A stretch of DNA of 64,000 nt from a virus (taxonomy: Duplodnaviria > Caudoviricetes). Position numbers and translations under genes: made by a program. Shown here piece by piece: positions 2,518-64,000 of this stretch. The notes under the pieces are model-generated. The model had not been told where the DNA came from and made no database searches. It worked only from the letters and a program-made list of their open reading frames with translations. Every line of letters begins with the position of its first letter. Within the stretch, counting starts at the first letter, position 1. The stretch spans positions 72 to 64,071 of the IMG/VR virus record IMGVR_UViG_2828341930_000001; one strand, 5' to 3'.

Positions 2518-2753
2518 GGCGCATCCCCCTCTTGGATGATCGCTGCCAGGGCGCGGATGGCCGCCTTGGCGTCTTCGTCCAGGTCTGCGGCTATGGCCTT
2601 GAAGTCCAAGCCTATGTCATTCCCTTCCCTGGTAAGGCTGTTGATGAGGCAGGCGACGGCGAAATCGCCATCCTCGACAACAGCATGGGCAATATCGTCC
2701 GTATCCGGATAAATGGTGGCGCTGGTGGTCAAGCTGATGCTCGTGCTGGTCAT
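2514..2753 (-). CDS. Hypothetical phage protein
   Basis: Coupled ORF in leftward operon. Confidence 0.6.
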   Translation of the reverse strand: MTSTSISLTTSATIYPDTDDIAHAVVEDGDFAVACLINSLTREGNDIGLDFKAIAADLDEDAKAAIRALAAIIQEGDAP

Positions 2754-2786
2754 GGCGGAAACCTCTCAATTCAGCGGGAGTGGGGG

Positions 2787-3014
2787 CTAAGCGAGGGTGT
2801 GGCGGACCATCTCAGCCAACGCCTTGAACGGTCCCAACTGGTCAATCTCGTGCTGGCAAAGGGGGCGCTGAAACTTGATCCTGATGGCCGGGTCCAGCGC
2901 GTCCAGGAACGCGGCGACAACGGCGGCAGCAACCGCGCGGTCAGCTGGGTTCCCGGCGTTTTCCAACGCTTGGGCGCCAGCATTGACGGCCTGCCGAATG
3001 GCGAATGCGCTCAT
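2787..3014 (-). CDS. Hypothetical phage protein
   Basis: MSAFAIRQAVNAG... preceded by GAGG; fits operon. Confidence 0.5.
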   Translation of the reverse strand: MSAFAIRQAVNAGAQALENAGNPADRAVAAAVVAAFLDALDPAIRIKFQRPLCQHEIDQLGPFKALAEMVRHTLA

Positions 3015-3025
3015 GCCGTATCCTC

Positions 3026-5122: not shown

Positions 5123-5304
5123 TCGGCGGCCTCGATCTCATCCGCCACCTGCGTCAGGTCCTCCGCCAGCATGCGGGCGTGTTCGGGGAGGTAGGCTTTC
5201 GCCGTAACCTTGCCGCTCTTGTTGCGGTGGGTGAGCACCACGTATCCATTCAAGGCGTCAACGATGGTGCACCCGGGCAGGGGCTGCTGATGGTTGGCCA
5301 TCAC
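5119..5304 (-). CDS. Hypothetical phage protein
   Basis: 61 aa ORF coupled to both neighbours. Confidence 0.6.
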   Translation of the reverse strand: MMANHQQPLPGCTIVDALNGYVVLTHRNKSGKVTAKAYLPEHARMLAEDLTQVADEIEAAE

Positions 5305-7196
5305 GCACCCCCTTTCAGGACGGCGTCGGCCGCGTCGGCTTCCGCCGCCATGGCGGCGGCGATTTCGTCGTAGGTGCCAAAGCGGAATTCCGCTGGGATG
5401 GTGCGAACGTCGTTCGCGTCAACAAAGTCCGCGATGGCGGAGCGGAGCTTGCCTGCATCCCATTTTTTCAGGTCCGCAACAGCGATAGGGCTGGTGAAGC
5501 GGTGATGCCGCCCACCCTGGGTCATGCCGATGGTGACGGCCAGCCGACGCAAGCGGTGCGCGTCCAGCAAGGAAAGATAGTGGGTATCAATCTGCCATTG
5601 ATCCGCCATCCGGGGCATGTCCGCAGCCCAGGCCGCGACCGCCGCAGGGCTGTCCCCACCCGCGACGTTGCCACCGGCATAGACACGGGCCGCAACAAGG
5701 GCGGCAAACAACACCCGCAAATCGCTGTCCGGAAGGTCCAGCAGGGCGCGCACCAGGTCCGCCGCCGCATCGGACCGCGCTACGCGCCCATCCTCGGCTT
5801 CCGCCCGGACTGGGGCCATGGCGGCGGTGAGGGTTGAGCGATGGGTACGTTGGCTTTCCAGCGCTTCGGCCAACGTGGGGTGCACTGCCCTACGGCTGCC
5901 TGGGCTGCCGCTGCGCAGAAGGATGGCCGGGTCGTTGCCCATCATCCCGACGCACGCCAAGACCATTGCCATGCGCGTATGCGCGAATACGGTCATCTGC
6001 AACGCCTGGGTCTTCACCCGGTCGACATAGTCGCGGTGCTGGGGGGACATTAGCGATGGGCCCGGCAGTACCGGGGCGGCAGCCATCTGGACGTCACCGC
6101 GCTGGAAGGCTGGGGTAGTCGGTGCGGGGTCCGGCTTCGCGTATGCGTGGCGCTGGACGAGGTCTTCCCGTAGATCCCGCATCGCCTGCAGAAAGGGTGG
6201 GCGTTCCGGGGCGTTGGCGCCCAAGGTGGTCGGCTGCGGATGGCCCAGCCCCAACGCGTCCAGCAGGCCGCCGGGCTCTACCATGGGCAGCTGCGGCGCC
6301 ATGGCGGCGGCGTGTTCCGCGATGCGGTCGCGCAGGTCCACCGCCGTGGCATAGCCATCGGCGCCCATCCCGATCCGCATGGCATGATATTCCTGCTGAT
6401 CCGCCGGCAGGCGCATCAGTTCGCGGGCCATTTCCAGGTTGACGCCGTCGCCGTCCAGCCACAGGTCCTTGACGGCCTCGGTCAGGTCGCGGGCCATCTG
6501 CATCCGCAGTTCCACCCACCGGGGGGTGCGGCCCTTGAACATCCGGCCGATTTCGTCCTTGGTCCATCCGGCGGCGAGCATGTCCAGGAAGGCTTGCCCT
6601 TCCTCCAACGGGTGCATGTCCTTGCGGTCTATGTTTTCCATCGCCGCGATGGCCAGCACGTCCTTGTCCGTGGCGGGGCGGATGTCCACCTTCATGGCGT
6701 GATCGCCCGGCCAGGTACCGCGCTCCACCAGGATGGTAGCGGCGCGCAGGCGCCGTCCGCCGATGAAGACTTCAAAGTATCCGACACTGTCGGGATGCGG
6801 GCGCGCGGTCAGGTTTTGCAGCTGGCCCTGCGCGGCCATGCTGTCCGCCAGTTCCTCCAAGGCGTCCACGTCGAACACCTTGCGGGGGTTCAGGGCGCTG
6901 GGCATCAGCCGATCCAGCGGGATCATCCGCACGCCGCTGTCCGGTTCCTCCGCCCCCGCCGCCCCCGGGCTGGCAAGGTCCGCATCCCCGGTCAGGTGAC
7001 CAAGGGTGACGTCCAGCACGGGCGCCAGCTTGCGCAGGGTGTCCAGGTCCAAGCCTGGGGTGGCGCCGCGCAGGACTGCGCCGATGCTGGCGTGCGACGC
7101 GAGGCCTGCCGCGCGGGCCAGGGGCCGGATACCCAAACCCTTGGCGTCCATCGCGGCCTTGAGGCGCTGCCCCAGCTGGGAGATTTCGGCGGTCAT
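5301..7196 (-). CDS. XRE-HTH fused to ParB/RepB/Spo0J family protein
   Basis: N-term HTH (RLKAAMDAKGLGIRPLARAAG); IPLDRLMPSALNPRK...LQNL...IGGRRLRAA; AMENIDRKDMHPLEEGQAF. Confidence 0.85.
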   Translation of the reverse strand: MTAEISQLGQRLKAAMDAKGLGIRPLARAAGLASHASIGAVLRGATPGLDLDTLRKLAPVLDVTLGHLTGDADLASPGAAGAEEPDSGVRMIPLDRLMPSALNPRKVFDVDALEELADSMAAQGQLQNLTARPHPDSVGYFEVFIGGRRLRAATILVERGTWPGDHAMKVDIRPATDKDVLAIAAMENIDRKDMHPLEEGQAFLDMLAAGWTKDEIGRMFKGRTPRWVELRMQMARDLTEAVKDLWLDGDGVNLEMARELMRLPADQQEYHAMRIGMGADGYATAVDLRDRIAEHAAAMAPQLPMVEPGGLLDALGLGHPQPTTLGANAPERPPFLQAMRDLREDLVQRHAYAKPDPAPTTPAFQRGDVQMAAAPVLPGPSLMSPQHRDYVDRVKTQALQMTVFAHTRMAMVLACVGMMGNDPAILLRSGSPGSRRAVHPTLAEALESQRTHRSTLTAAMAPVRAEAEDGRVARSDAAADLVRALLDLPDSDLRVLFAALVAARVYAGGNVAGGDSPAAVAAWAADMPRMADQWQIDTHYLSLLDAHRLRRLAVTIGMTQGGRHHRFTSPIAVADLKKWDAGKLRSAIADFVDANDVRTIPAEFRFGTYDEIAAAMAAEADAADAVLKGGA

Positions 7197-8026
7197 GGGG
7201 TGCCCCCGGCGGCGCCTTCATCGGCTGGCACCCGGAAGTAGGTGGCGATCTGATCGCCTGTCAGCGCCACGCCCGATTGGATCAGCGCCAGGATGGCCGC
7301 CTGTTGTTCCTCGTTGCCGGCGCTCATGTGGCGGGCCTGGTAGGGATTGATCTTGCCTTCTTCCAGCGCCCGCTTTGCGGGATCGATCAGCCGCTCGACC
7401 ATGCGCAGCGAGTATTGCACCACCCGGGGATTGACCCCTGACGCGGCGCCGATTTCGGATGCGGTCATGCCGCCATCCGCCATGCCCCGCCACCATTCCG
7501 CCATGTTCAGCGCCGATGCCCCGGGCGCGGATGGAATTTCCGGCGGCGGGCTGGCCGTCGCCAGACCGATATCCCGCCAATAGCGCTGTGCCGCGAGCGG
7601 GCCGTGCACGCGCAGGTATGTCACGACCATCAGCCGCTTCCGATAATCCTCATCCGTCAGCACGATGCGCGGCAGGGGGCGCGCCGCTTGCCCCATCTCA
7701 TAGCGCCCGGTGCGGCGCAGGCTGGGAAGGACCTCGGCCGTCACCCACTTCTTGAAGCGCTTAGCCGCCGGCTTGCGGCTGGTCAGGATCAGGCTGTAGA
7801 GGCCGCTTTCGTTGATCACGGTCAACTGCTGAACCTGCGCCCGGGCGATACCCTCGATATTGTCGAGGGTATCCCGCTCATCAGGATCTAAACGCCGTGA
7901 AGCGTCAGACGTGTTGCCAATCTCAAGCACACGGCACACGTCGGACAGCACCCACCAGGGGGCGCCCTCGCGATCCAAAACGCGGACGTTGGCGCCTTCA
8001 AAGCTGAAGGGAATTACAGCGGTCAT
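7193..8026 (-). CDS. BRO-N domain antirepressor with C-terminal ParB-like HTH
   Basis: FSFEGANVRV...DVCRVLEI...INESGLYSLILTSRKPAAKRFKKWVTAEVLPSLRRTGRY. Confidence 0.9.
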   Translation of the reverse strand: MTAVIPFSFEGANVRVLDREGAPWWVLSDVCRVLEIGNTSDASRRLDPDERDTLDNIEGIARAQVQQLTVINESGLYSLILTSRKPAAKRFKKWVTAEVLPSLRRTGRYEMGQAARPLPRIVLTDEDYRKRLMVVTYLRVHGPLAAQRYWRDIGLATASPPPEIPSAPGASALNMAEWWRGMADGGMTASEIGAASGVNPRVVQYSLRMVERLIDPAKRALEEGKINPYQARHMSAGNEEQQAAILALIQSGVALTGDQIATYFRVPADEGAAGGTP

Positions 8027-8041
8027 TTCTGGTTCCTTGGG

Positions 8042-8311
8042 TTAGATCGCGCGGGGAGCGCCGCAGGCCACTCGTTGCGCCTTTTCAAGGGCGGCCTTTT
8101 CCAGGCCCAGCGCATTGCCGAAGCCCCGGCCCCGCGCGGCGACGCCAATGTGGTTGGCGGCGGCGGCGCGTAAGCGGGGGGTGACCGACGCGGCGCCCGC
8201 CAGCTTGTCCAGGTAGTCGAAGCCCCGGATGGCCAGGAGAAAGCTATGTTCGTGGCTCGCGAGATGGGCGTGGCGCCAATACATCATGGTCTGGATTTCA
8301 AGGCGGGACAT
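8042..8311 (-). CDS. Hypothetical, first gene of leftward early operon
   Basis: MSRLEIQTMMYWRHAHL..., GGAGG upstream. Confidence 0.5.
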   Translation of the reverse strand: MSRLEIQTMMYWRHAHLASHEHSFLLAIRGFDYLDKLAGAASVTPRLRAAAANHIGVAARGRGFGNALGLEKAALEKAQRVACGAPRAI

Positions 8312-8334
8312 GTTCAGCCCTCCGGGATCGGGAG

Positions 8335-8367
8335 AAAATCCCCCGGGGGTGGGGCTCACCCCCGGGG
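8335..8367 (-). terminator. Hairpin, probable leftward terminator (tL-like)
   Basis: CCCCGGGGGTG/CACCCCCGGGG 11 bp stem followed by ATTTTCT on minus strand. Confidence 0.5.
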
Positions 8368-8430
8368 AGTGCCCGGGAAGGCGTGCCCCGGGGCCGGTGG
8401 TGAACAGGGAGGAAACGACCGGCCTAACAG

Positions 8431-8482
8431 AAATTGCACAACGCAATTTTCTTGGCAACACAATTTGATTGCATTTCGCGAT
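8431..8482. promoter_or_regulatory. OL-like operators ATTGC-N5-GC(A/G)AT
   Basis: AAATTGC-ACAAC-GCAATTT at 8431-8449 and ATTGC-ATTTC-GCGAT at 8468-8482. Confidence 0.6.
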
Positions 8483-8600
8483 CCGCCGCAAAATTACATG
8501 GCTGCGGCAAAATTGCATGGCGTGCCTTGGCGCCCTCCTAGGTGTTTCTGCCATGGCATGCGTGGCGCGAACGGCGTTCGATTTTCATCATGGCGGCACC

Positions 8601-8954
8601 ATGCAAACACCGCCTGAAAACCGAATTCGCGAGATGCGCCAGCGTGCAGGCCAGACCCAAGAGGAGCTGGCGCACGCCCTGGGGACATCGTCTGGCCAGG
8701 TTCACAAGCTGGAAAGCGGCAAGCTGGGTCTAAGCCTGCAATGGATGGTGAGGATCGCCGACGCGCTTGGCTGCCATGCTCGCGACCTCATACCGCCGCC
8801 AAGCGGATCTGTCGAAGAACGCGCCGGGCAGCTGACCGAAAAAGCGCAGATCCTCACCAAGTTGGTGGCGGCTGGTCATTTTCGGGCGGCCTCGGCCTTG
8901 GCGAGTGATCTGGGCAAGGCGCTAGGCGCCGCGGCAGATGACTTCCCCGATTGA
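8601..8954 (+). CDS. XRE-family HTH regulator
   Basis: NRIREMRQRAGQTQEELAHALGTSSGQVHKLESGK. Confidence 0.85.
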   Translation: MQTPPENRIREMRQRAGQTQEELAHALGTSSGQVHKLESGKLGLSLQWMVRIADALGCHARDLIPPPSGSVEERAGQLTEKAQILTKLVAAGHFRAASALASDLGKALGAAADDFPD

Positions 8955-9235
8955 TTTTCTGCCGTGATGGCAGGATGACGGCTGCACCATGAATACCCAA
9001 GTAGTCAATCTTGGCGTGTATACGTGGCGTTAACGCTCCAGATGCGTGTATTTTTGTGGAAATATCCGCAATCATTGCCGTAGTGTAGGCGTTAGACCGC
9101 CACTGGCAGGGAGGTCTCGCGCTTGCCGGCGCGTTACCAGTCAGAAAACCCCCTGACCGACCATAGCCGCATGCTTTCAGTCGCCCTGCCAGGGCGGCAA
9201 TCTGATCATATTGGCTGTCCGGGTGGTTACTTAAT

Positions 9236-9619
9236 ATGAATAAAAGTATACGTGCCCTGCTGTTGCAGCTTGGCGAGACATTGGTTAACTATGTCTATAT
9301 AAATGTCGACGGAAGCGTCAAAAAAGCGTGGATCGCTGATAGTTATCCATACACCTTGATTGGCGAAGACATAGACCAAATCTTTACCGAAGATTGCCGA
9401 ACATGGCGCATCAAGGGATTTGTAGCCTTTGGCGGCACTACAACTCTAGTAACGGATAATGGCGACTTTTCCGTGCCGGCATACCTGATGCCGGACATGG
9501 GCAATCTAGTGATTATCGGAACCCTGGCTGTCCAATTCCGCAACGCGCAAGTCGGCAGCAACGCTCTCCGCAAGTCGGATAGCCCGTTGGACGTCGTTCT
9601 TGATGATGGATCGCCTTAA
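9236..9619 (+). CDS. Hypothetical lower-GC cargo protein in immunity region
   Basis: 127 aa ORF, AT-richer codons, convergent on the repressor gene. Confidence 0.55.
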   Translation: MNKSIRALLLQLGETLVNYVYINVDGSVKKAWIADSYPYTLIGEDIDQIFTEDCRTWRIKGFVAFGGTTTLVTDNGDFSVPAYLMPDMGNLVIIGTLAVQFRNAQVGSNALRKSDSPLDVVLDDGSP

Positions 9620-53860: not shown

Positions 53861-54190
53861 TTGGAACACTCGACCGACTCCACCAATATTGCCCGCTGTG
53901 ACTGCTTGCCAGGGGTGTAGGCAATAAGGGATGTCCTCCTTTACATGTGTGTGCCCTAAATTCGACAGTGCAGTTGCTGTGGTTTGCATTTGTCCGCTTT
54001 GTGCCTCATGGTGGTCGTTGGGTAGATCAACATAGATCACCGATAGCGGACCTTGGCGATATCGCGGAAGGTCACTGGAAGCCTTCCACCAGCGATTTTT
54101 CGATCCCCCGATTGGGTTGTGGTTTGCTGGCCGCAAAAAGATAGCTTATTATTTGACATTTTAGCGCCACCAAATCTTTTCAGGTCAAAA

Positions 54191-55522
54191 ATGGCACAAC
54201 GTCCAAAAGCTCCCGCCAGAAAAACCAAACCAACTACGGACGCTGAGAGAAGAATAGACTTTAGGAGGGGCGTCCCAGAACTCCTCTACAGGCAAGCAGG
54301 TGGGCGGTGCTCTGTCCCTCGGTGCAAAAACCCTACAATGGGGCCATTTTACGAACGAGACGGCGCCGTAAACATGGGTGTTGCGTGCCATATATATAGT
54401 GCGGCTGAAGACGGGCCTCGGGGGAGGGGCGGAAAAGATGCTGATTTTATTAGCAGCGAAAAGAACGGAATATGGTGCTGCGAATACCATTCCCCACTGA
54501 TAGACAAAGCAAGAGGCTGCGACTATCCAGCAGAGGTTCTTTTTGCTTGGAAAGCCCTTATTGAAGCTCGCGTATTAAAAGAGATGAACGACTTCCCCTC
54601 TCCGCTAGGATGGGTGGATTCCATTGAATTTAGCGAATTCCCAGGATTGAAGCCTCTTCCAAAAATAACACTTTCCCGACGAACACTTATGACGGGACGA
54701 AACTGCAGCGGCAAGTCATCCCTTATGGAGGCCGCCGCATCTATTTCTCACTCAAGATATATGGACCGCTTCAGCGGAACGCGTATAAAAAATAAAGAAG
54801 GTGACTCGGAGCCGGCCACTTTCCGCGCCAAAGTGACGTACTCAACAGTTGATAGCTTAAGCAAGGAAATTGACCTAGAAATTAGGGGCATTGAACTTTC
54901 CAGACGAAACGGCACGATTCCGTATCTGTTGCCTCCAGGTGACATTGAGATCATCTACTGTTCTGAGTCCGACACGAGAAAGCTCGATCACGAAGACGAT
55001 ATTGATTTTTTGATGCGAACTCTGAATGTTGATAAGAGTGCCCTTTTTGCTCTTGCGAAAATTGGGGCCGGGCCGCTCTTTCCTGGTGACATTGCCTTTG
55101 TACATGCGACGGAATCAGACGACGACACCGAAGAAGAACGCCCAAAATTCAAAACAGACGGCTCTCCATATTTCGAACTAATGTTCAAGAGACGTGGATC
55201 ACAATGGCCTCCGCGCCCGTTTGACAACCTTTCAGGTAGCGAGAGAGGTAGCCTAATACTTGACCTCATTATACTCAAGGCCCGTGAGGTCAGCAAAGAA
55301 CGATTAACTCTCCTTCTTATTGAAAGCTTATCTGTGACTTTTGATCGAGGAAATTTTGAGGCACTGCTGAGGGCGCTTTCATCTGAGGACTTTCAGGTTA
55401 TCGTGCTCTTACCACCAGCAAGAGAGAATGATATTCTAGAGATGGGCGCGACAAAGCCTGTACTTCGCAAGCTAGATTATTTGGATTCTTGGCAACTTTC
55501 CGTAATAGGGGCGGAGGACTGA
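54191..55522 (+). CDS. HNH endonuclease fused to ABC-type ATPase-like domain
   Basis: CSVPRC...ACHIYSA..GPRG...NGIWCCEYH..ID; GRNCSGKS; LSGSE. Confidence 0.8.
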   Translation: MAQRPKAPARKTKPTTDAERRIDFRRGVPELLYRQAGGRCSVPRCKNPTMGPFYERDGAVNMGVACHIYSAAEDGPRGRGGKDADFISSEKNGIWCCEYHSPLIDKARGCDYPAEVLFAWKALIEARVLKEMNDFPSPLGWVDSIEFSEFPGLKPLPKITLSRRTLMTGRNCSGKSSLMEAAASISHSRYMDRFSGTRIKNKEGDSEPATFRAKVTYSTVDSLSKEIDLEIRGIELSRRNGTIPYLLPPGDIEIIYCSESDTRKLDHEDDIDFLMRTLNVDKSALFALAKIGAGPLFPGDIAFVHATESDDDTEEERPKFKTDGSPYFELMFKRRGSQWPPRPFDNLSGSERGSLILDLIILKAREVSKERLTLLLIESLSVTFDRGNFEALLRALSSEDFQVIVLLPPARENDILEMGATKPVLRKLDYLDSWQLSVIGAED

Positions 55523-55689: not shown

Positions 55690-56210
55690 TGTCACTGGAT
55701 GTCAGGGCGCAGGATCTGCTGGCCGACACCGTCATCGTCAGCGACTACGCTGGACAGTTCCACGTCGGGCGCCATGCCTTGTGCTGGGTCCATGCCGAGC
55801 GCCTGGTCCACAAGCTCGACACCTTCACCGATCATCATCGCGCCGCCCAGCAGCGCATCCGCAGCCTGATCTGGTGGTTCTACGCCGACCTCAAGGCCTA
55901 TCGCCACGATCCGACGCCGGCGCGAAAGGCCGCCTTGCGTGCCCGCTTCGACCGCATCTTCAAACGCAAGACCGGCTTCGCCACCCTCGACAGGCTGCTC
56001 GCCCGCCTCCACGCCAACAAGCCGGAATTGCTGATGGTCCTCGACCAGCCCGATATCCCGCTTCACACCAACGGCTCGGAAAACGACATCCGCTGCCAGG
56101 TCACCAAGCGCAAGATCAGCGGCGGCACCCGCAGCGACACAGGCCGCCAATGCCGCGACGCCTTCCTCGGCCTGGCCAAGACATGCGCAAAACTCGGGCT
56201 CTCCTTCTGA
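55690..56210 (+). pseudogene. tnpC: IS66 transposase C-terminal fragment
   Basis: VSDYAGQF...HALCWVHAER...TNGSENDIR...KRKISGGTRS. Confidence 0.85.
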
Positions 56211-56224
56211 GACTATCTCGGCAA

Positions 56225-56573
56225 CAACCAGATGCACCGGCACAAAGGACGCCGCCTCAGGGGAGAGTTCGCCGCTCCGGATCTGCCGGCGCCATCGGTA
56301 GATCAGGCTGCTGCACACCCCATGGCGCCGTGCCACCGCCGCCACGGCCCCGCGACCACCACGCGCCTCGCCCACCAGGCGAATCTTCTCCTCCGCCGAA
56401 TAGGCGCGCCGCCCACCGGCCCCGGTGATGACCTCGATACGTTGGACTGCCACGGTGCAAACCACAACTGCTTGCCATGATGCCAAGCCGGCCACACACC
56501 CACGCGCCGCCGACACATAGCTTTCAGCACAACAGCCCCCGATCCAACAAGGCAGCCCACAGACGACGCTTAC
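56225..56573 (-). mobile_element. tnpA: IS66 left end with truncated tnpA
   Basis: GTAAGCGTC terminus at 56573; RIEVITG..RRAYSAEEK...VARRHGVCSSLIYRWRR. Confidence 0.8.
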
Positions 56574-57050
56574 GGTAAGTCCAGTCTGCTGGCCGATCCG
56601 AGCCTCGCCCTGCCACCACACTTCTACCGGCGTTCCCGGCGGGAACTGGCTCCCGATGCCCGCCAGGCGGGTTGGGAAGTTTTTTCGGCAATGTCTTCGG
56701 ACTTCTGACCGCGATGGCGCGGGCAGCCGAGAGCTTAAGATAGCCCAGTGCACGCAGTTCGCGGCCAAGGGTGAAGCACCTCATCGAGACGCCGAATTCG
56801 TCCCCCGGCAACTGGACCAGATCGAAAGACCGCCAGCGCACGACGCCGTGCACGGTTGGGATCGGCCCAACCTCGCCGGCTGCGGCCTGGCGCGCGCGGT
56901 GAATATCGTTCCGCAGCGATGCCTTGCTGGACGCCTTGCACGCCGCCAGGCGTCCGGGCCATTCGCATAACGATCCACGCGCCCGCCTTCGGTCTGGTGG
57001 CGTTCACCGCGAGGACTGTGTAGCACGCGCCTTGGCCATCTTGTTACTCC
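56574..57050 (-). pseudogene. IS630-family transposase remnant
   Basis: LGRELRALGY.KLSAR and VEVWWQGEARIGQQ (degenerate DEAR-GQ) in shifted frames. Confidence 0.65.
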
Positions 57051-57182
57051 CAACTCGGTGGCTGTCGGACGTGCCGATGGCGGGAGCGCTGCCGGCGGCC
57101 CAGGGGGGAATGGCCTGTCTCGTCCCCGCACTTGTGGATAGGGGGACAGCCAGACTGTTCCGGTTTCCCAGAAGGCTATCAA

Positions 57183-57884
57183 ATGGCGAACAACGGCCAC
57201 ACAACGCTTCCGGCTGGCACCGACAGCGACCTATTCCAGGTTGCGAAAACTGCAGCGGCCGAGGGTCGTCCCGAGGACATGTTGCAGGCACTGAGCGCCA
57301 GTATGTTTTTGGATGGCCTTGTGCGGATGCATCGGAAACGGTGGGGCCAGAAACTGCCGGCCTCGGAGATTGAAGACTGCATCGCCTCGAGCGTGGACGC
57401 AGCATATGACGGCATCCGGGCAGGAAAGCCCGTGCACGACCTTGGGGCCTGGCTTTGGAAGGTAGCGGATAAGGTCGCGCAAGACCGCTGGACCAATGAC
57501 TACCGGCACCGGCGGGGCGAGGCCAACGATCTGGCTGAAACTCCCGACCAAATCCTTGATGACGGGGAAAGGGCTGAGGCTGAAGCCTTAGCGGACCACA
57601 GGAAGTCGGAAGCTGTACGCTTTGCGCGCCGACTCCTGCCCCGCCTCGGCCAAGGACAGATCGCCGACGTTATGGCTCTGCTCATCGACGCCGTCGAGCA
57701 AGGCTTGCCCGACCTGCCCGCCAACTTGGTCGCTGACACGCTTAGCATCAGCGCTGGATCCGCACGCAAGCTCATGTCTAGGGGACTGGCGCGGCTGCAG
57801 CGTGAGGCAGCCAAGGAAGGCATCGAATTCCCAGACACCTTCGACGACAACACCGATAACAATCAACCCGAGGACGACCAATGA
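57183..57884 (+). CDS. ECF sigma-70-like protein
   Basis: Region 2 EIEDC...AWLWKVADKVAQDRW; region 4 VADTLSISAGSARKLMSRGLARL. Confidence 0.75.
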   Translation: MANNGHTTLPAGTDSDLFQVAKTAAAEGRPEDMLQALSASMFLDGLVRMHRKRWGQKLPASEIEDCIASSVDAAYDGIRAGKPVHDLGAWLWKVADKVAQDRWTNDYRHRRGEANDLAETPDQILDDGERAEAEALADHRKSEAVRFARRLLPRLGQGQIADVMALLIDAVEQGLPDLPANLVADTLSISAGSARKLMSRGLARLQREAAKEGIEFPDTFDDNTDNNQPEDDQ

Positions 57885-59410
57885 CCACGCCTCAGAACGA
57901 TTTTTCAACTGAGTTCCGCCAATTGATCGCGGACGCTCGGGCCCTTTCGTCCGACATCGGCGGAGTGGTGGAAGAGATCCTGCGATCCGGCTTGAACGAG
58001 CCGCTGTCAGACGAAGAGGCGCGCTCGCTACTGACCAGGGTTGCGCAGGTTATGCGGTCCAATGCTCAAGTCCGAGGTGACACCTCCACGATGGCGGCGC
58101 TCGACACCGGGATAGCCGAATTAGTTGATCGGGTCATGTCCGTTCACGATTTGCTCGGCAGCCGTTTCTTATCCACCACCATCACCAACCAGATACGGCC
58201 TATCGAACACGACGGTATCAAACCGCGTCCGGTTTTGCCCACGCCGGTTTTCCATGAGCGGCCTGTGCAGGTGGTAGAAGGGTTCGTCCGCACGCGAGAT
58301 ATCCAGCTCTGGGATGAAAACCAGCGCCTGGATATCCATCTCAACCAGTTTCAACAGGCCCATGGCCGGAAGCCTGATGCTGATGAGTTGCTGGAGATTA
58401 TGACGGGCGAGATGACCCTTCCGGGTCTCACCAAGGATGATCAGTTCGAAATCAAAAACTTGGCGCGAAGCATTGCGGTCAATGGAGTTCGTAAGCCGCC
58501 GATCATCGACATCGACGGCAAACTGCTTGACGGTAACCGCCGAACGGCGGCCTGCTACTTCATCCTCAACAGCCCTGATTTCGATGCTGATTCCAAGCGG
58601 CGAGTCGAATGGATGCTCGTTTGGCAGCTTACAGAGCATGCAACCGAGGCCGACCGGAATGCAGTGATAGTGTCCCTGAACTTCGAGCCAGACTTCAAGC
58701 AAGACTGGCCAGAATACGTGAAGGCACGGACCGTCTATGAACGTTGGCAGGGGTTGGTAGCGCTTGAACCACGCGGCAACCCCACGCTCTCCCGGCAGCG
58801 GGCGCTCAAGCGCGACATTGCGCGCACCTTCGCGATTTCGGCGGATGACGTCAGCCGCTATATTAGCATGGTCGAATTAACGGAAGATTTCGAGGATTAC
58901 CATGTCACCGAACGCAATCAAGATCAGTACGCAGTCAAGCATCGCAGCGAGCGATATTTCCAATACTTCGACGAACTAGGAAAGGGAAAAGGCGCTGGTG
59001 GCGTCTATTGGTCTCTCAACCAGGACGATAGCTTTAAGCACTTAGTCTACGACTTACTCTACGATGGAAAATTCCAAAATTGGAATAAAATTCGCGACCT
59101 CAAATACGTCTATTCGAATGAAGACGCAATGGCCTACTTGCGGCGGGCTCGTGACGAAAATGACCCAGAAGCCGGACAAGAGCTTGTCAACGACGCGTGC
59201 GGCTTCGCGCGGGCGTCCCGTGCTGAGACCCGTCAGGTCGGAGCGAACACGCGCGTCCATGTCTTCGTCGAGTGGTTCAAAGACCTTCCCGTGAAGACGT
59301 TCAAGCCTGGTGAGCCCGGGTCTATCAGCCAGGAGAATCTCCAGGGGCTGCGGACGGTTTTGGACATAGTGGAGAAGCACTTGCCAACCGCTGGCCGTGA
59401 GGAGAACTGA
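57881..59410 (+). CDS. ParB/Srx-like N-terminal-domain protein with HTH
   Basis: LARSIAVNGVRKPPII...LLDGNRR; DIARTFAISADDVSRY. Confidence 0.75.
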   Translation: MTTPQNDFSTEFRQLIADARALSSDIGGVVEEILRSGLNEPLSDEEARSLLTRVAQVMRSNAQVRGDTSTMAALDTGIAELVDRVMSVHDLLGSRFLSTTITNQIRPIEHDGIKPRPVLPTPVFHERPVQVVEGFVRTRDIQLWDENQRLDIHLNQFQQAHGRKPDADELLEIMTGEMTLPGLTKDDQFEIKNLARSIAVNGVRKPPIIDIDGKLLDGNRRTAACYFILNSPDFDADSKRRVEWMLVWQLTEHATEADRNAVIVSLNFEPDFKQDWPEYVKARTVYERWQGLVALEPRGNPTLSRQRALKRDIARTFAISADDVSRYISMVELTEDFEDYHVTERNQDQYAVKHRSERYFQYFDELGKGKGAGGVYWSLNQDDSFKHLVYDLLYDGKFQNWNKIRDLKYVYSNEDAMAYLRRARDENDPEAGQELVNDACGFARASRAETRQVGANTRVHVFVEWFKDLPVKTFKPGEPGSISQENLQGLRTVLDIVEKHLPTAGREEN

Positions 59411-59411
59411 C

Positions 59412-61187
59412 GTGGATCGCACTACGATGACCTACGTGACGGCCGATGTGCGGTTATCCGAAACGCTGGATGCCCTCTATGTAGTCCCTCAGGATCCTGC
59501 AGATGCTCTGACTATCCTGCGGCGACTTTCCGCCTCCATGCCGACGGCGGGACTCCGACGTGGTGCGGGGGGGATCCGTGTCGGGCGTGAAAACGCCACA
59601 TACCTGAAAATAGGCACCCCCGGCCTTAACTTGGTATGGGCCTCCGAAGCCCGACAGTTTGTCGCCAACCGGGAACGTGTGGCGGCCGCCTACCCTGCAG
59701 TGCGGGCCTCCATCGAAGGAATAAAAGCTGGCGGCCCCGACGCAGCCCGCTTGTTCATCAAGGACAGCGACGGGTTGAATGTCCTCGACAGGCACCAAGT
59801 CACCAACGTGGCTGCCATGACCGTACCGGAGGGATTTGGGTTGTGCGTCTTCGACGAACAGGGCGCCGGCAAGACGGTCACCATGATTTATGCGTTCGAT
59901 TTGATGGTTGCCCGGGACGAAGTCGACTTGCTCGTTATCGTAGCGCCTAAGAGCATGGTGGCCGAGTGGCCGAAGGACTTCGCGACGTTCCGCGGGGACT
60001 TATACCGGGTGGCTATCTTGACCGGAACCAGTGTGCAAAAGCGATCGACCCTGCGTTCAGGTGCCGATGTCCTTGTCATGAACTTCGAAACGGCCGTAGC
60101 GTTGGAGGCGGAGTTGAAGTCCTTGCTACGAAACAAAGACGGGCGCGCGGTTCTGGCGATCGACGAATCGTTTTTCATCAAATCGTTGGATGCCAAACGA
60201 ACTCGGGCGCTTCGGCGTCTCCGCGAGTGGTGCGGGCGGGCCTATGTGCTTTGTGGCACGCCAGCACCCAATGCACCGCAGGATCTGGTCCAGCAATTCA
60301 GCCTTGTAGATTTTGGGTTGGCGTTCGAGGGGCTGGAACTGCCCAAGGACCGAGAGACGGCTATGCCGTTGGTACAAGAGGTGGTCGACACTCGTGGCCT
60401 CTACATTCGGCACCTCAAAACCGACGTCCTGCCCGACTTACCACAAAAGCAGTTCCAACGGATTTACGTGCCGATGGAACCGCGTCAACGACGCCTCTAT
60501 GAAGGCGCTCTAAATAGGTTGGTGGATGACGCTGAAGCCGCGTCTGACCGAGACTTCCAGAAGACCTATGCCAACTTCCTCGCTCGGCGAGCCGCCCTGC
60601 TACAGGTTTGTTCCAACCCACAGGGCATCGACCCCTCGTATAAAGAGACCCCGTCAAAGCTCGCCACGATGGACAACATTCTCCACGAACTGGTCGAGCA
60701 ACGGGGAGAGAAGGTGGTGGTCTGGTCGTTCTACACCGCTTCAGTGACGGCGCTGGTCGAGCGCTACGCACGGTATGGAACGCTACGTTATGACGGTCAA
60801 GTTAGCAACATCACCGAACGGCGGGAAGCAGTGAGGCGCTTCCAGCAGGATGCAGACGCCAAAATCCTTGTCGCCAACCCCGCAGCCGCGGGTGCAGGAC
60901 TCACGCTGCATAGTGCCCGGATTGCAATTTATGAATCCCTTTCGAACCAGGCAGCGCACTACCTGCAAAGTCTCGACAGAATCCACCGGCGCGGCCAGAC
61001 TAGGGATGTTGAATACTTGGTGCTGCTTTGTGACGGAACGATCGAGGTTCAGGAGTATGATCGGCTTATCCGCAAGGAGCGCGCCGCCCAAGATCTCCTG
61101 GGAGACCAGGTGAGCGCCCCAGTGACACGAGAATCCTTCTTAGCGGATGCTCGCGCCGCTGTGGAATTCCTGAGCCGATCCCAATAA
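59412..61187 (+). CDS. SNF2-family helicase/translocase
   Basis: DEQGAGKT, VAPKS, IDESF, CGTP, AAGAGLTL, QSLDRIHRRGQ; GGAG RBS before GTG at 59412. Confidence 0.9.
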   Translation: MDRTTMTYVTADVRLSETLDALYVVPQDPADALTILRRLSASMPTAGLRRGAGGIRVGRENATYLKIGTPGLNLVWASEARQFVANRERVAAAYPAVRASIEGIKAGGPDAARLFIKDSDGLNVLDRHQVTNVAAMTVPEGFGLCVFDEQGAGKTVTMIYAFDLMVARDEVDLLVIVAPKSMVAEWPKDFATFRGDLYRVAILTGTSVQKRSTLRSGADVLVMNFETAVALEAELKSLLRNKDGRAVLAIDESFFIKSLDAKRTRALRRLREWCGRAYVLCGTPAPNAPQDLVQQFSLVDFGLAFEGLELPKDRETAMPLVQEVVDTRGLYIRHLKTDVLPDLPQKQFQRIYVPMEPRQRRLYEGALNRLVDDAEAASDRDFQKTYANFLARRAALLQVCSNPQGIDPSYKETPSKLATMDNILHELVEQRGEKVVVWSFYTASVTALVERYARYGTLRYDGQVSNITERREAVRRFQQDADAKILVANPAAAGAGLTLHSARIAIYESLSNQAAHYLQSLDRIHRRGQTRDVEYLVLLCDGTIEVQEYDRLIRKERAAQDLLGDQVSAPVTRESFLADARAAVEFLSRSQ

Positions 61188-61202
61188 ACAACCAAACATC
61201 AC

Positions 61203-62615
61203 TTATTCCGCTGCGAGCATGAGTTCGTCTTTTACATCAATAATTTCATCTGCCGCCGGGTGTAATCTCTTTCGACCACCAACCGAGATCAGGTGCTTTA
61301 ACTCATTGAGCCGTTCAGGCGGCACATATTCAAAGGCATCAGCGCGCATCCGTGAGCCCTCCTGATGCCAATCCGAGATCGTACTCCCTTTGGTGTCGTT
61401 CCTCATGTGGGGAGGATTAACGATCGTCCGAGGGCGCCGCAGCATCTTCGCCAAGAGGTCGAGATTCCAACACTCGACGCGTCCATAGCTGCGTCCGGTT
61501 CCTTCTTGCGCCTGCGCTGCTATAAGGGCTTGGCCTATTGCTTTGCCGAGGCCCACTGGCACCGCATTGCCGACCTGCTCGTACTTTTGCCTAACCGACC
61601 CGGCAAAGGTCCAATCTTCCGGGAATTGCTGGATCCGAGCATATTCGCGGATGGAAAGCGGGCGCAACTCGGTGGGGTGGCAGAGGCTTGTGGCTTTGCT
61701 ATCTGGCCTCGTCGTGAGCGCTGGACTTGGTCGGTCGAAGCTCAGGCGGCGAAAGAAACCAGACCGTCCTCCCCACGAAACAAATGCCCGGCCTAGCGCT
61801 TCCGACTGCAACTCTTCGGGCAAGGCTCGCCAGTTCCCACCTTCGGGAACCATGGCGAGGTATTTAGCCTTGCTTGGGCAAAGCTTCGTGAATTCGGGAG
61901 CAGGGTCTTCCAGCCCCTCAAGCGCGGATCGAAGTATTTGCCACTTGGGAAGTCCATTGTCGCCATTCCGATCGTGGGTCGCAGCCGGCATAGCGATCCG
62001 TTCGTGATACCGCGTCCCCAAGAACACTAGACGCTCTCTGGCCTGCGGGACGCCAAAGTCCGCCGCATTCAGGATGTCGAAGATGGTGTAATATCCAAGC
62101 TCGCGCAAAGTGGAGGCGACAGTTTTCAAGGCCGAACCCAACTCCTCGTCGGGCTCCAGTGTGGGATAGCCAGGACCTCGTTCTTTCAGGGATCGATGCT
62201 TCACCGCAGCCGAAAGTAAGCCGCGAACATTTTCCATGACAAAGAAATGCGGCTGGGCTTCCCGCACGACCCGAGCGAAATGCTGAAAGAGCGTGCCGCG
62301 TGGGTCGCTGAGAGAACTGCGCGCGCCTGCAGTGCTGAAAGCCTGACAGGAGGGACCGCCAGCCACTGCGAAGGCCTCTCCCGGTTTGAGCCCTGCCGCT
62401 TCTAAAATTTCTGTCGTGGTGACGTCTTCGATTTTTCGGTCGATGACCGGCAGGCCGGGCCGGTTGGCGCGGATGGTGGCAACGGCCACGGGGTTGCATT
62501 CAACAGCTACCGCAACGTGCAGGCCTGCGGCTTCAAGGCCGAGATCAAGGCCCATTGCTCCTGAAAAAAGAGAAATTACGGGCAGGTCGGGGCGACTATC
62601 GCTTCGGCCTATCAT
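61203..62615 (-). CDS. C5 DNA cytosine methyltransferase
   Basis: LFSGAMG, GGPSCQ, MENV, QARER, REYARIQ, VGNAVP. Confidence 0.95.
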   Translation of the reverse strand: MIGRSDSRPDLPVISLFSGAMGLDLGLEAAGLHVAVAVECNPVAVATIRANRPGLPVIDRKIEDVTTTEILEAAGLKPGEAFAVAGGPSCQAFSTAGARSSLSDPRGTLFQHFARVVREAQPHFFVMENVRGLLSAAVKHRSLKERGPGYPTLEPDEELGSALKTVASTLRELGYYTIFDILNAADFGVPQARERLVFLGTRYHERIAMPAATHDRNGDNGLPKWQILRSALEGLEDPAPEFTKLCPSKAKYLAMVPEGGNWRALPEELQSEALGRAFVSWGGRSGFFRRLSFDRPSPALTTRPDSKATSLCHPTELRPLSIREYARIQQFPEDWTFAGSVRQKYEQVGNAVPVGLGKAIGQALIAAQAQEGTGRSYGRVECWNLDLLAKMLRRPRTIVNPPHMRNDTKGSTISDWHQEGSRMRADAFEYVPPERLNELKHLISVGGRKRLHPAADEIIDVKDELMLAAE

Positions 62616-62790
62616 CTGTCTCTAACCCCAATACAAGCTGGCCAGTACTGGCCTGATCAAGCAACCGCGTGAGGGCGAGTTCGACGACATAACGCTTTGG
62701 AAGCCGCGGTTGACGGCGGACAGTGACGTCCAAAAGCCGCTCATAAAGCCGCCGATCAATCACCACCGTAAAGCGCATTTCGTCGGCCAT
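62596..62790 (-). CDS. Ribbon-helix-helix regulator overlapping MTase start
   Basis: RFTVVIDRRLYERL...KRYVVELALTRLL. Confidence 0.7.
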   Translation of the reverse strand: MADEMRFTVVIDRRLYERLLDVTVRRQPRLPKRYVVELALTRLLDQASTGQLVLGLETDDRPKR

Positions 62791-63047
62791 GCAGGCGCCT
62801 CGAATCATAAATATCCGTTATGGATTCTAGCTTTTTGTAGATCAAAGTAAACATCAAATTGCATAGAAGCACACCAAAATATGATATTCTGCACATCGTG
62901 TCTGAGCCCCACCCCTGGAGGCGGCCATAGACCCACCGCCTACCGTCCACCCGCGACCGCCGCGATCCGGGGCGGTCGCGGTGAACTAGGCCTCATCGAA
63001 GGGGGCGAAGCGCAGGGGCACCATCAAGCCGGCTGCCAGAGCCACCA

Positions 63048-63338
63048 CTACACCCCACCCCGCTTCCTCTCCGGAAGCTCGGGCCCAGGCCCATCCCCCT
63101 CGCCCCCACCGGTCCGGTCAATCTCCAGCCCGACCAGCAGGTCCGACGCTTCGATCCCCAACCCCCGGGCGAGATCCACGATTACCGCAAGGCTGGGATT
63201 CCATTTTCCCCGTTCCAGGTCCGACAGATAGGGCACGGCCATACCAGCGCGGCCGGCAAGCTCCTCTTGCGTCAGGCTTTTCGCCTTCCTTTGCTGCCGC
63301 AGTAGCTTCCCAAACTGGATCCGGATGTCTTCAACCAT
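63048..63338 (-). CDS. XRE HTH regulator (controller-protein-like)
   Basis: FGKLLRQQRKAKSLTQEELA...YLSDLERGKWNPSL. Confidence 0.85.
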   Translation of the reverse strand: MVEDIRIQFGKLLRQQRKAKSLTQEELAGRAGMAVPYLSDLERGKWNPSLAVIVDLARGLGIEASDLLVGLEIDRTGGGEGDGPGPELPERKRGGV

Positions 63339-63595
63339 CCGGGCAAAACACGCGGTTGCAAAAGCCAAGGCCATAATATATATCTTAAGTCGCCTTTCAG
63401 ACGGTGCTGACGCGCCTTTTCACAGGCGTCTTCGGTCGCCGGGCGCCACCGTCCTCCGTTGCCGTATTTCCTAGGGTTTCCCAATGCCCCTTTCCCCCCG
63501 CCCCGTCGCCCGCCGCCTCGGCCGGGCCACCCTCCGCATATTGCCCGTTTCCCCGCTGGCGGCACCCTCCGCCCACGCGTCGGCGGAGGCCTGAG

Positions 63596-64000
63596 ATGAA
63601 GAAGGTCTCGGGTCAACTGTCGCTGTTGGGCGACTCCATCATCAACGCCAAGCAGTGCAACTACAGCCTTATCAAGATTGGCGGCCAAATCCTTCCAAAG
63701 GTGGTCGTGCCGATCGGCCTGAATAACTTTCTCGATGTCGACGCCGATGGCGTAACCACGCTCCATTACGTCAAGTTATTCTATACTAGCCCCCTGATCA
63801 TCGGCATCGAAACACCTTCAGGCGAGCGCTATTACGCGAAGACCAATGCCTTCACATCGCTCATAATCCTGATCTGTTCCATTATTCTCATCCCTTTCTT
63901 GGGGCTCGGGCTTTTGTTCCTGCCCGCCGCCTTCGCCGTCATCGCGACGGACATCGCCGGCGGCCAGCTGCAGGACCAGGGCTTTACACCCGTCAAGTAA
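63596..64000 (+). CDS. Hypothetical membrane protein
   Basis: MKKVSGQL...C-terminal TM hairpin. Confidence 0.6.
   Translation: MKKVSGQLSLLGDSIINAKQCNYSLIKIGGQILPKVVVPIGLNNFLDVDADGVTTLHYVKLFYTSPLIIGIETPSGERYYAKTNAFTSLIILICSIILIPFLGLGLLFLPAAFAVIATDIAGGQLQDQGFTPVK

Follow-up and report, generated by a model that had tools for sequence, protein, structure and literature searches.

A sigma-like, ParB-like and SNF2 gene cassette paired with a C5 cytosine methyltransferase: a candidate nuclease-less relative of AbiR-type, methylation-linked defence systems

AbiR, encoded by plasmid pKR223 of Lactococcus lactis, is made of three proteins. According to a 2026 review of lactococcal Abi systems, AbiRa is similar to a sigma70 factor, AbiRb is ParB-like and best matched in the PDB by 5K5D, and AbiRc consists of an N-terminal restriction-endonuclease-like domain and an Snf2 ATPase (PMC13064643). 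The three are confidently predicted to form a complex and, as summarised in the same source from the primary studies (Twomey 2000, Yang 2006), the system requires the LlaKR2I methylase, is toxic without it and impairs phage DNA replication (PMC13064643). Here, we analysed a locus of a 64,000-nucleotide stretch of Caudoviricetes DNA (positions 72 to 64,071 of IMG/VR record IMGVR_UViG_2828341930_000001, hereafter called the window), which codes for a sigma-like protein, a ParB-like protein and an SNF2 ATPase next to a C5 cytosine DNA methyltransferase (MTase). An earlier note on this DNA, made from the sequence alone, held that the gene set matched no system that could be named; that statement does not stand, as AbiR has the same gene order and likewise goes with a methylase (PMC13064643). 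Full-text literature searches returned no paper describing the gene set of the window itself. On balance, and with moderate confidence, we regard the locus as a reduced, nuclease-less copy of a rare, mobile, methylation-linked defence cassette of AbiR design, akin to restriction-modification (R-M) systems.

The locus comprises two convergent units within positions 57114-62897 (Table 1), with the sigma-like, ParB-like and SNF2 genes on the plus strand and the genes of a ribbon-helix-helix (RHH)-like protein and of the MTase on the minus strand. The sigma-like and ParB-like genes overlap by 4 nt (ATGA), and a 1-nt gap separates the ParB-like stop from the SNF2 start, given the SNF2 start at 59412; this is the start called in a 91%-identical relative (locus L025), the GTG at 59397 being open too. 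The trio is a translationally coupled operon. The SNF2 and MTase genes end 15 bp apart on opposite strands, and the RHH-like coding region overlaps the start of the MTase gene by 20 nt. The tight coupling of the trio and its end 15 bp from the stop of an intact MTase gene had both been pointed out in the earlier note and were confirmed by the open reading frame (ORF) calls. None of the five genes is truncated, and their motifs are intact. One colinear segment, 57115-62897, is common to the window and L025, with 82% nucleotide identity, and it delimits a module of ~5.8 kb. Its left border coincides with a conserved cis element, its right end is at 62897, and the Vsr and HNH_2 genes of L025 fall outside it. 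The remark that no classical restriction endonuclease gene is adjacent also holds, the nearest nuclease-like ORF (54053-55522) being outside the 5.8-kb module.

Table 1. Features of the cassette, in window coordinates.
Feature	Position	Strand	Remarks
Conserved cis element	57114-57145	+	40-70 nt 5' of the sigma-like start; candidate promoter/operator
Sigma-like gene	57183-57884	+	233 aa; ORF listing and translation
ParB-like gene	57881-59410	+	509 aa; ParB/Srx fold
SNF2 ATPase gene	59412 (or GTG 59397)-61187	+	about 591-596 aa
C5 cytosine DNA methyltransferase gene	61203-62615	-	470 aa
Small RHH-like gene	62596-62790/62808	-	likely regulates the operon that it forms with the methylase gene
Control region of the RHH-methylase operon	62809-62897	-	sigma70-like promoter and TGYRCA palindromes

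A scan of species-representative genomes returned 23 loci of this type; the counts below refer to 24 loci. They come from about eight phyla, with representatives of the Alpha-, Beta- and Gammaproteobacteria, Thermodesulfobacteriota, Binatia, Acidobacteriota, Chloroflexota and Verrucomicrobiota. The sigma-like, ParB-like, SNF2 and C5 MTase genes are kept together in all of them (24/24), invariably with the sigma-like gene before and the SNF2 gene after the ParB-like gene. The MTase gene (50-69% identity of the product) is found within 5 kb of the trio at all loci, most often convergent and downstream, and in five loci upstream and on the same strand. All-against-all clustering of every ORF at these loci revealed no further conserved flanking gene. 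The cassette is a self-contained unit, the association of its genes being far beyond chance. The earlier view of the trio and the MTase as one conserved unit is thus borne out, since the trio did not prove common without the MTase, which is present in 24/24 loci.

The AbiR-like design extends to plasmids of Firmicutes, in which pairs of genes for a DGNRR-containing ParB-like protein and an SNF2 protein adjoin methylase genes or a large sigma-like gene. The partners of these pairs are the large sigma-like gene in an Enterococcus plasmid, dcm and Vsr genes in an L. plantarum plasmid, dcm and a gene for a Sau3AI-family nuclease in a Priestia plasmid, and type III Mod and Res genes in L. lactis and L. 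paracasei plasmids. In two loci of plasmids from lactic acid bacteria (L030, 3002-11016; L033, 157-8297), the type III Mod and Res genes are followed in the same operon by the DGNRR ParB-like and SNF2 genes, which suggests that ParB-SNF2 pairs can join classical type III R-M systems. A profile-profile comparison of the ParB-like families of the window and of Firmicutes using hhalign gave a probability of 83% and an E value of 9e-6 over 163 columns, pointing to distant homology between the two. Because of this profile link and of the Firmicute pairs, we place the cassette as a branch within a larger group of ParB-SNF2 systems linked to methylases, in which AbiR alone has been named and tested.

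The window differs from its relatives between the two convergent stops, which are 15 bp apart in the window and separated by 0.4-1.9 kb with one or two genes in most relatives. Directly 3' of the SNF2 gene, 16 of the 24 loci encode a protein of ~150 residues with the pattern H-E...PDV...G[D/E]AK, in which H, PDV and K are invariant. This protein belongs to no Pfam family and has no significant match in the PDB; its motif signature is that of a putative PD-(D/E)xK-type nuclease. An HhH-GPD/endonuclease III-type glycosylase gene follows the MTase gene or is fused to it in relatives, T:G repair genes being the usual companions of 5-methylcytosine (5mC) methylases. In L014, L016, L018, L019 and L020, the MTase and the glycosylase are encoded in one ORF (655-735 residues), which places methylation and T:G repair on a single polypeptide. 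The closest relative, L025, has genes for Vsr and for a 330-residue HNH_2 protein instead of the glycosylase gene. The latter protein, with an uncharacterised N-terminal domain, is encoded in L001 (11418-12410, minus strand) and in L025 (9436-10428, minus strand). Both loci lack the PD-(D/E)xK gene, and one type of nuclease may have been swapped for the other.

In the window, no PD-(D/E)xK, HNH_2 or T:G-repair gene was found at the cassette, and the complete 7.09 Mb genome to which it belongs yielded no match to the nuclease-family profile and none to the HNH_2 protein. Two ORFs considered as hidden nuclease genes (63272-63766 on the minus strand and 62881-63231 on the plus strand) were rejected, as they look like non-coding frames. 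The L003 and L011 loci are reduced like the window copy, and L003 and the L025 module are independent instances of the nuclease-less layout. The window copy has probably lost the accessory nuclease that most relatives carry and probably does not cut DNA. With the nuclease and repair genes gone, it therefore would either no longer restrict, leaving a methylase and a surveillance complex devoid of a cutter, or interfere without cutting.

Such losses might also indicate a decaying remnant, in which only the methylase still matters, as an orphan enzyme, and the trio is intact because the loss of the nuclease and repair genes is recent. The closeness of the SNF2 and MTase stops relative to the other loci would fit this scenario, as would the insertion sequence (IS) and transposon debris around the window copy and the instances of decay found elsewhere, namely truncated SNF2 and MTase genes in L015, a nuclease remnant and a split ParB-like gene in L022 and a damaged sigma-like gene in L025. 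It is at odds with the integrity of all five window genes and with the fact that L003 and the L025 module (82% identical) independently show the same nuclease-less layout. Pairwise ratios of nonsynonymous to synonymous substitution rates (dN/dS) cannot date the loss of the nuclease. Altogether, we find it doubtful that the cassette is such a remnant.

We then considered the cassette proteins themselves. The SNF2 protein matches the SNF2-rel_dom (2.9e-21) and Helicase_C (5.4e-10) Pfam families, and its N-terminal domain of ~140 residues is poorly conserved and without a nuclease motif. The DEQGAGKT, DESF, GTPAPN and QSLDRIHRRGQ motifs are invariant in the intact copies (22-23 of the 24 loci). 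Since Walker A and motifs II (DESF), III and VI are thus all preserved, it has the appearance of an active ATPase, and the DESF sequence, singled out earlier as an unusual motif II, is a hallmark of this SNF2 family. Its best plasmid match, in Bradyrhizobium, was set aside as its genomic context is unrelated. Comparison of the window with its closest relatives gave dN/dS values of 0.06 for the SNF2, 0.04 for the ParB-like and 0.08 for the MTase gene.

The ParB-like protein is composed of an N-terminal four-helix extension, a ParB-N core with the DGNRR motif and a helical C-terminal domain. Gly218, Asn219, Arg220 and Arg221 are invariant among relatives. It has no match in Pfam, ParB_N included, or in NCBIfam, and PHROG ParB matches are weak and restricted to residues 190-227. 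Its AlphaFold2 model, with a predicted local distance difference test (pLDDT) score of 75, has pNOB8 ParB (5k5d), Noc, CTP-bound ParB and KorB as top Foldseek matches (probability 0.97-1.0), and also matches the N-domain of PadC (probability about 1). The presence in this model of both the ParB-N fold and the arginine-rich motif supports membership in the ParB/Srx superfamily, as had been proposed for this 509-residue protein. The four-helix extension might be an anti-sigma domain, a possibility tempered by its low pLDDT score (~60) and by L023, where a sigma-like gene goes with a short N-terminus. At least 587 proteins, none of them named, are homologous to the ParB-like protein, with 55-91% identity. 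Among 1.84 billion representatives, an exhaustive profile search collected no more than 294 clusters at 50% identity, and the family is therefore rare. It also includes the short ParB-like protein of a variant locus without a sigma-like gene (L038, 2452-9236), which comprises genes for an MTase-helix-turn-helix fusion, an unknown 315-residue protein, the short ParB-like protein, an SNF2 protein and a further protein. At that locus, a gene for an SRA-domain (5mC-reading) protein is found on the opposite strand.

The MTase harbours the Pfam DNA_methylase domain (PF00145, 4.4e-57) over residues 13-365, with PCQ, ENV, QxRxR and GNAVP motifs, and it matches the PADLOC MTase_II model at 1.9e-91; the nearest solved structures are those of M.HaeIII and M.HhaI. 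The domain is followed by a C-terminal extension of ~100 residues, conserved in relatives up to about residue 445, and the protein thus corresponds to the intact, C-terminally extended C5 MTase described previously. The small protein encoded upstream is conserved in 10 relatives (48-59% identity). Like the other four genes, this one is real; its earlier identification as an RHH gene rests on a strand-helix-helix pattern and on operator-like repeats, with no significant match in Pfam or the PDB. In the 120 nt 5' of the RHH gene of 12 loci, the TG[CT][GA]CA sequence occurs 17 times versus 0.9 expected, often with a spacing of 10 nt. These TGCGCA-type palindromes are likely RHH operators, and the RHH-like protein probably regulates the operon of the methylase. 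A sigma70-like promoter (TTTACT-16-TAGAAT, 62851-62824) is found 5' of the RHH gene, a single site that is not above chance on its own.

The sigma-like protein has no Pfam match and stays below NCBIfam thresholds (22 bits for SigE-fam, with a cut-off of 141). However, the profile of its family, built from 19 relatives, matches the extracytoplasmic function (ECF) sigma factors SigW and SigH in the PDB (E values of 1.7e-4 and 2.1e-4, respectively), the SigH match spanning regions 2-4. In addition, its AlphaFold2 model (pLDDT 84) retrieved almost exclusively sigma factors as top Foldseek matches, with probabilities of 0.9-1.0. The protein is thus predicted to combine ECF-type region 2 and region 4 folds, in agreement with the ECF-sigma-like label that it had received. 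In L025, the corresponding gene (3229-3934) is frameshifted in the linker between regions 2 and 4, which may be real decay or an assembly error of this Logan contig.

A 32-nt element is present 40-100 nt 5' of the sigma-like gene in every main-clade locus, as a single copy or as two in tandem, and invariably on the coding strand of that gene. Its sequence is approximately CCTGTnnCGC-N5-GACT..., and the invariant positions are TGT..CG.......AC. A position weight matrix built from 13 instances recovered the element in held-out loci and in the window. In the 7.09 Mb genome the element is single-copy (score of 34.1, versus 19.7 for the second-best site), and no second copy indicative of a wider regulon was found there. 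As the element overlaps the TTG at 57132, we favoured the ATG at 57183 as the start of the sigma-like gene. The conserved TGT..CG and GAC blocks are only ~7 nt apart, and the putative -10 sequence is poorly conserved. Because the blocks are too close for standard -35 and -10 boxes, we call the element a candidate promoter or operator of the trio operon rather than a proven sigma-dependent promoter.

These data bear on the role of the sigma-like protein, which the earlier note had imagined to read or melt DNA. A regulatory role is at least as compatible with the conserved, cassette-private element in front of its gene. The protein might accordingly be a working ECF sigma factor that, together with host RNA polymerase, transcribes the ParB-SNF2(-nuclease) operon from this element, and thus provides a host-independent, delayed switch that holds back the restriction functions until the genome is protected by the methylase. 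The C-proteins of type II R-M systems give a comparable delayed switch. This alternative differs from the reading that we prefer solely in the role given to the sigma-like protein. It would account for the presence of the two sigma domains involved in contacts with core polymerase and promoter DNA, for the first position of the gene in its operon, as in autoregulated ECF sigmas, and for the strand-specific, sometimes tandem element that occurs nowhere else in the genome. It is also in line with our promoter scan, which detected a sigma70-like promoter 5' of the RHH-methylase operon and none 5' of the trio operon. Conversely, the ~7-nt distance between blocks is unlike the 16-17-nt spacer of -35/-10 promoters, the putative -10 is poorly conserved, and the protein does not reach the Pfam and NCBIfam thresholds for sigma factors. 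Furthermore, the confidently predicted three-protein complex of AbiR points to a structural subunit (PMC13064643). All in all, we view a function as a genuine sigma factor as possible, at a confidence somewhat short of even.

In the reading that we prefer, namely an R-M-like defence cassette of AbiR design, the methylase would mark host DNA at a specific cytosine motif, its operon being transcribed from an ordinary promoter and autoregulated by the RHH-like protein through the TGCGCA-type operators. The sigma-like, ParB-like and SNF2 proteins would assemble into a nucleoside triphosphate-driven complex engaging unmethylated DNA, with the ParB-like protein as a nucleotide-gated DNA clamp or loader and the SNF2 protein as the translocase. 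The sigma-like protein would be the DNA-reading subunit of this complex or, alternatively, a dedicated factor switching the operon on via its private upstream element. Where present, the accessory nuclease would perform the cleavage. The proposal of the earlier note, in which the MTase marks self and the trio is the effector, thus stands as regards the unity of the four genes; as the sole effector, the trio is probably not sufficient, since most relatives add a PD-(D/E)xK or HNH nuclease. More specifically, the sigma fold could act, rather than as a transcription factor, as a methylation-sensitive DNA reader of a ParB-clamp/SNF2 machine, with the base-flipping pocket of region 2 probing cytosines and nuclease-less copies silencing or stalling unmethylated foreign DNA with no cleavage involved. 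We deem this elaboration improbable; if true, self and non-self would be told apart in a new way, and the working of AbiR would be explained as well.

The genomic context of the cassette indicates mobility. The window copy sits after a prophage and before a Tn7-like element. Upstream of it are an HNH-ABC gene and an IS66 TnpA-like fragment, and downstream an XRE gene, an FtsH-like gene and a Tn7-like TnsA/TnsB/TniB set. The upstream fragment (55692-56768, minus strand) corresponds to an IS66-type TnpA accessory helix-turn-helix protein (NCBIfam, 6.3e-18) and represents IS debris just upstream of the cassette. The ORF at 54053-55522 (plus strand) codes for a 489-residue protein and is AT-rich (GC 0.52). 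The N-terminal part of this protein matches CBASS-type 'Effector endonuclease' and SAVED-HNH models (2.8e-16), followed by weak P-loop/SMC_N matches, and the gene may be a separate single-gene defence candidate. Past the window end, the same contig (L027) carries an FtsH-like AAA+/M41 protease gene, then the Tn7-like set, with TnsA-like, Mu-type transposase and TniB genes (2623-4752, 4946-5950, 5953-8256 and 8280-9254, respectively). The cassette may be cargo of this Tn7-like transposon or its neighbour. The L025 copy is carried by an integrative mobilisable element with integrase, relaxase and MobC genes, and the L026 copy by a phage contig with a terminase gene. In 22 genome loci, the flanks most often contain genes for serine or tyrosine recombinases, transposases and conjugation proteins. 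Defence genes are scattered among them, such as those of Olokun, type IIG and type IV restriction, AbiEii and Mokosh. The cassette is therefore horizontally mobile among distant bacteria.

This distribution raises the alternative that the module serves the mobile element itself. The methylase would shield the DNA of a phage or island against restriction by the host, while the ParB-like and SNF2 proteins would help to load or drive it along incoming DNA, much like the SNF2 partners of eukaryotic cytosine methylases, with no need for a nuclease. Close relatives next to a terminase gene in a phage contig and within an integrative mobilisable element, and the location of the window copy between a prophage and a Tn7-like element, are in keeping with this idea, as are the nuclease-less copies, the absence of a nuclease gene from the module common to the window and L025, and the strong purifying selection on the trio and the methylase (dN/dS 0.04-0.08). 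Nevertheless, the PD-(D/E)xK gene directly follows the SNF2 gene in the same operon in 16/24 loci, and convergent, separately controlled units are typical of R-M logic. Moreover, AbiR, the design equivalent, blocks phage and becomes toxic when its methylase is missing (PMC13064643), and a restriction function behaves in this manner, unlike a methylation helper. We hence judge a role in protecting the mobile element unlikely.

A number of observations weigh against our preferred reading of an AbiR-type defence cassette and temper our confidence in it. Firstly, the assignment of the small protein to PD-(D/E)xK nucleases derives from its motifs and from a weak match to the SdaI endonuclease (E value of 0.29). 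Secondly, the nuclease-less copies (window, L003, L011), together with strong purifying selection on the trio, suggest that the trio may have a nuclease-free function, which fits an R-M scheme poorly. Given this selection and the recurrence of such copies, a non-cutting mode of action is possible. Thirdly, the link with AbiR runs via its published description (PMC13064643) and the Firmicute plasmid family rather than via the pKR223 sequences, and no source names any homologue of that ParB-SNF2 family AbiR. The Firmicute SNF2 proteins have DEVH as motif II, as opposed to DESF in the family of the window, and the ~870-residue Firmicute sigma-like protein has no profile similarity with the 233-residue sigma-like protein of the window. 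Finally, the defence genes in the flanks were counted without a control set, and the defence-island signal is therefore only suggestive.

Although AbiR received its name in 2000, how it works is still not understood, and it is absent from the PADLOC 2023 models. Our analyses show the three-fold AbiR design plus a methylase as a compact, highly conserved cassette in about eight phyla of mostly environmental bacteria. As its parts are encoded by single genes (a short ECF-like sigma, a ParB-like protein, an SNF2 protein and a small nuclease), the cassette offers a simpler, dissectable version of that design, to which it adds a T:G repair gene, DNA elements private to it and a controller of its own. 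With it, R-M-like immunity comes to include a sigma-factor fold and a ParB-type nucleotide switch, and the natural nuclease-less variants provide a way to ask whether cutting is needed.

Finally, we compared the cassette with known systems, first by scanning its five genes and three neighbours with the PADLOC 2023 models. For the five genes, PADLOC, Pfam, NCBIfam and PHROGs gave generic matches only, for the SNF2 protein and the MTase, and no PADLOC model fits the sigma-like or the ParB-like protein. The silence of PADLOC says little about novelty, because it also gave no AbiR-type call on a clear AbiR-type operon from Enterococcus. DISARM similarly combines a methylase, an SNF2-type ATPase and a nuclease against unmethylated DNA, with DrmD in class 1 and DrmMII in class 2, and the SNF2 protein and MTase of the window match parts of the DrmD (4.2e-19) and DrmMII (1e-86) models. 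However, the DrmA helicase, DrmB (DUF1998) and DrmC (PLD) are absent from the window locus and from the 24 related loci, and DISARM has no sigma-like or ParB-like component. We thus rejected DISARM, on account of these merely partial matches and missing defining genes. BREX was rejected likewise, as PglZ and BrxC were not found among the genes of the locus and the only match was a weak one of BrxH to the C-terminal half of the SNF2 protein. The lack of core genes of both systems had been stated in the earlier note. Matches to Zorya (ZorD) and Dpd (DpdE) are limited to the SNF2 core of much longer models, with none of the partner genes (ZorA/B, DpdA/B) present at the locus; the SNF2 protein matches the DrmD, ZorD and DpdE models only in part. 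ARMADA, BREX-related systems and Dnd/CxC systems with cytosine methylases were also rejected, because their defining genes are lacking or different.

The ParB-like protein shares with the CTP-dependent clamps ParB, Noc and KorB the fold of its central domain and an arginine patch at the nucleotide-binding position (GNRR in the window, GERR in the clamps). It differs from them by its N-terminal helical extension and large helical C-terminal domain, by the absence of a ParA partner and by escaping detection with Pfam ParB_N, and nucleotide binding is only predicted. Type II C5 R-M systems, such as Dcm-Vsr or M.MthTI with the Mig glycosylase, resemble the cassette in having a controller with palindromic operators, a C5 methylase and, as in the relatives of the window, T:G repair. 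Unlike their single endonuclease, the restriction half of the family of the window would be a multi-protein NTPase machine (sigma-like, ParB-like, SNF2 and small nuclease).

The closest parallel is with AbiR, which has the same folds in the same order, sigma-factor-like, ParB-like and SNF2 ATPase, and 5K5D is the best structural match of both AbiRb and the ParB-like protein of the window. Both systems are carried on mobile DNA and are paired with a DNA methylase, as deduced for the family of the window from its presence in 24/24 loci. They differ in that the sigma-like protein is ECF-like and ~233 residues long in the window, as against ~820-870 residues in the AbiR kind. The nuclease is fused to the N-terminus of the SNF2 protein in AbiRc, whereas it is encoded by a separate small gene in the relatives of the window and by none in the window itself. 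AbiR borrows the methylase of a neighbouring R-M system, while the cassette has a dedicated, RHH-controlled C5 methylase, and its family also includes a T:G repair gene and is found in Gram-negative, environmental phyla.

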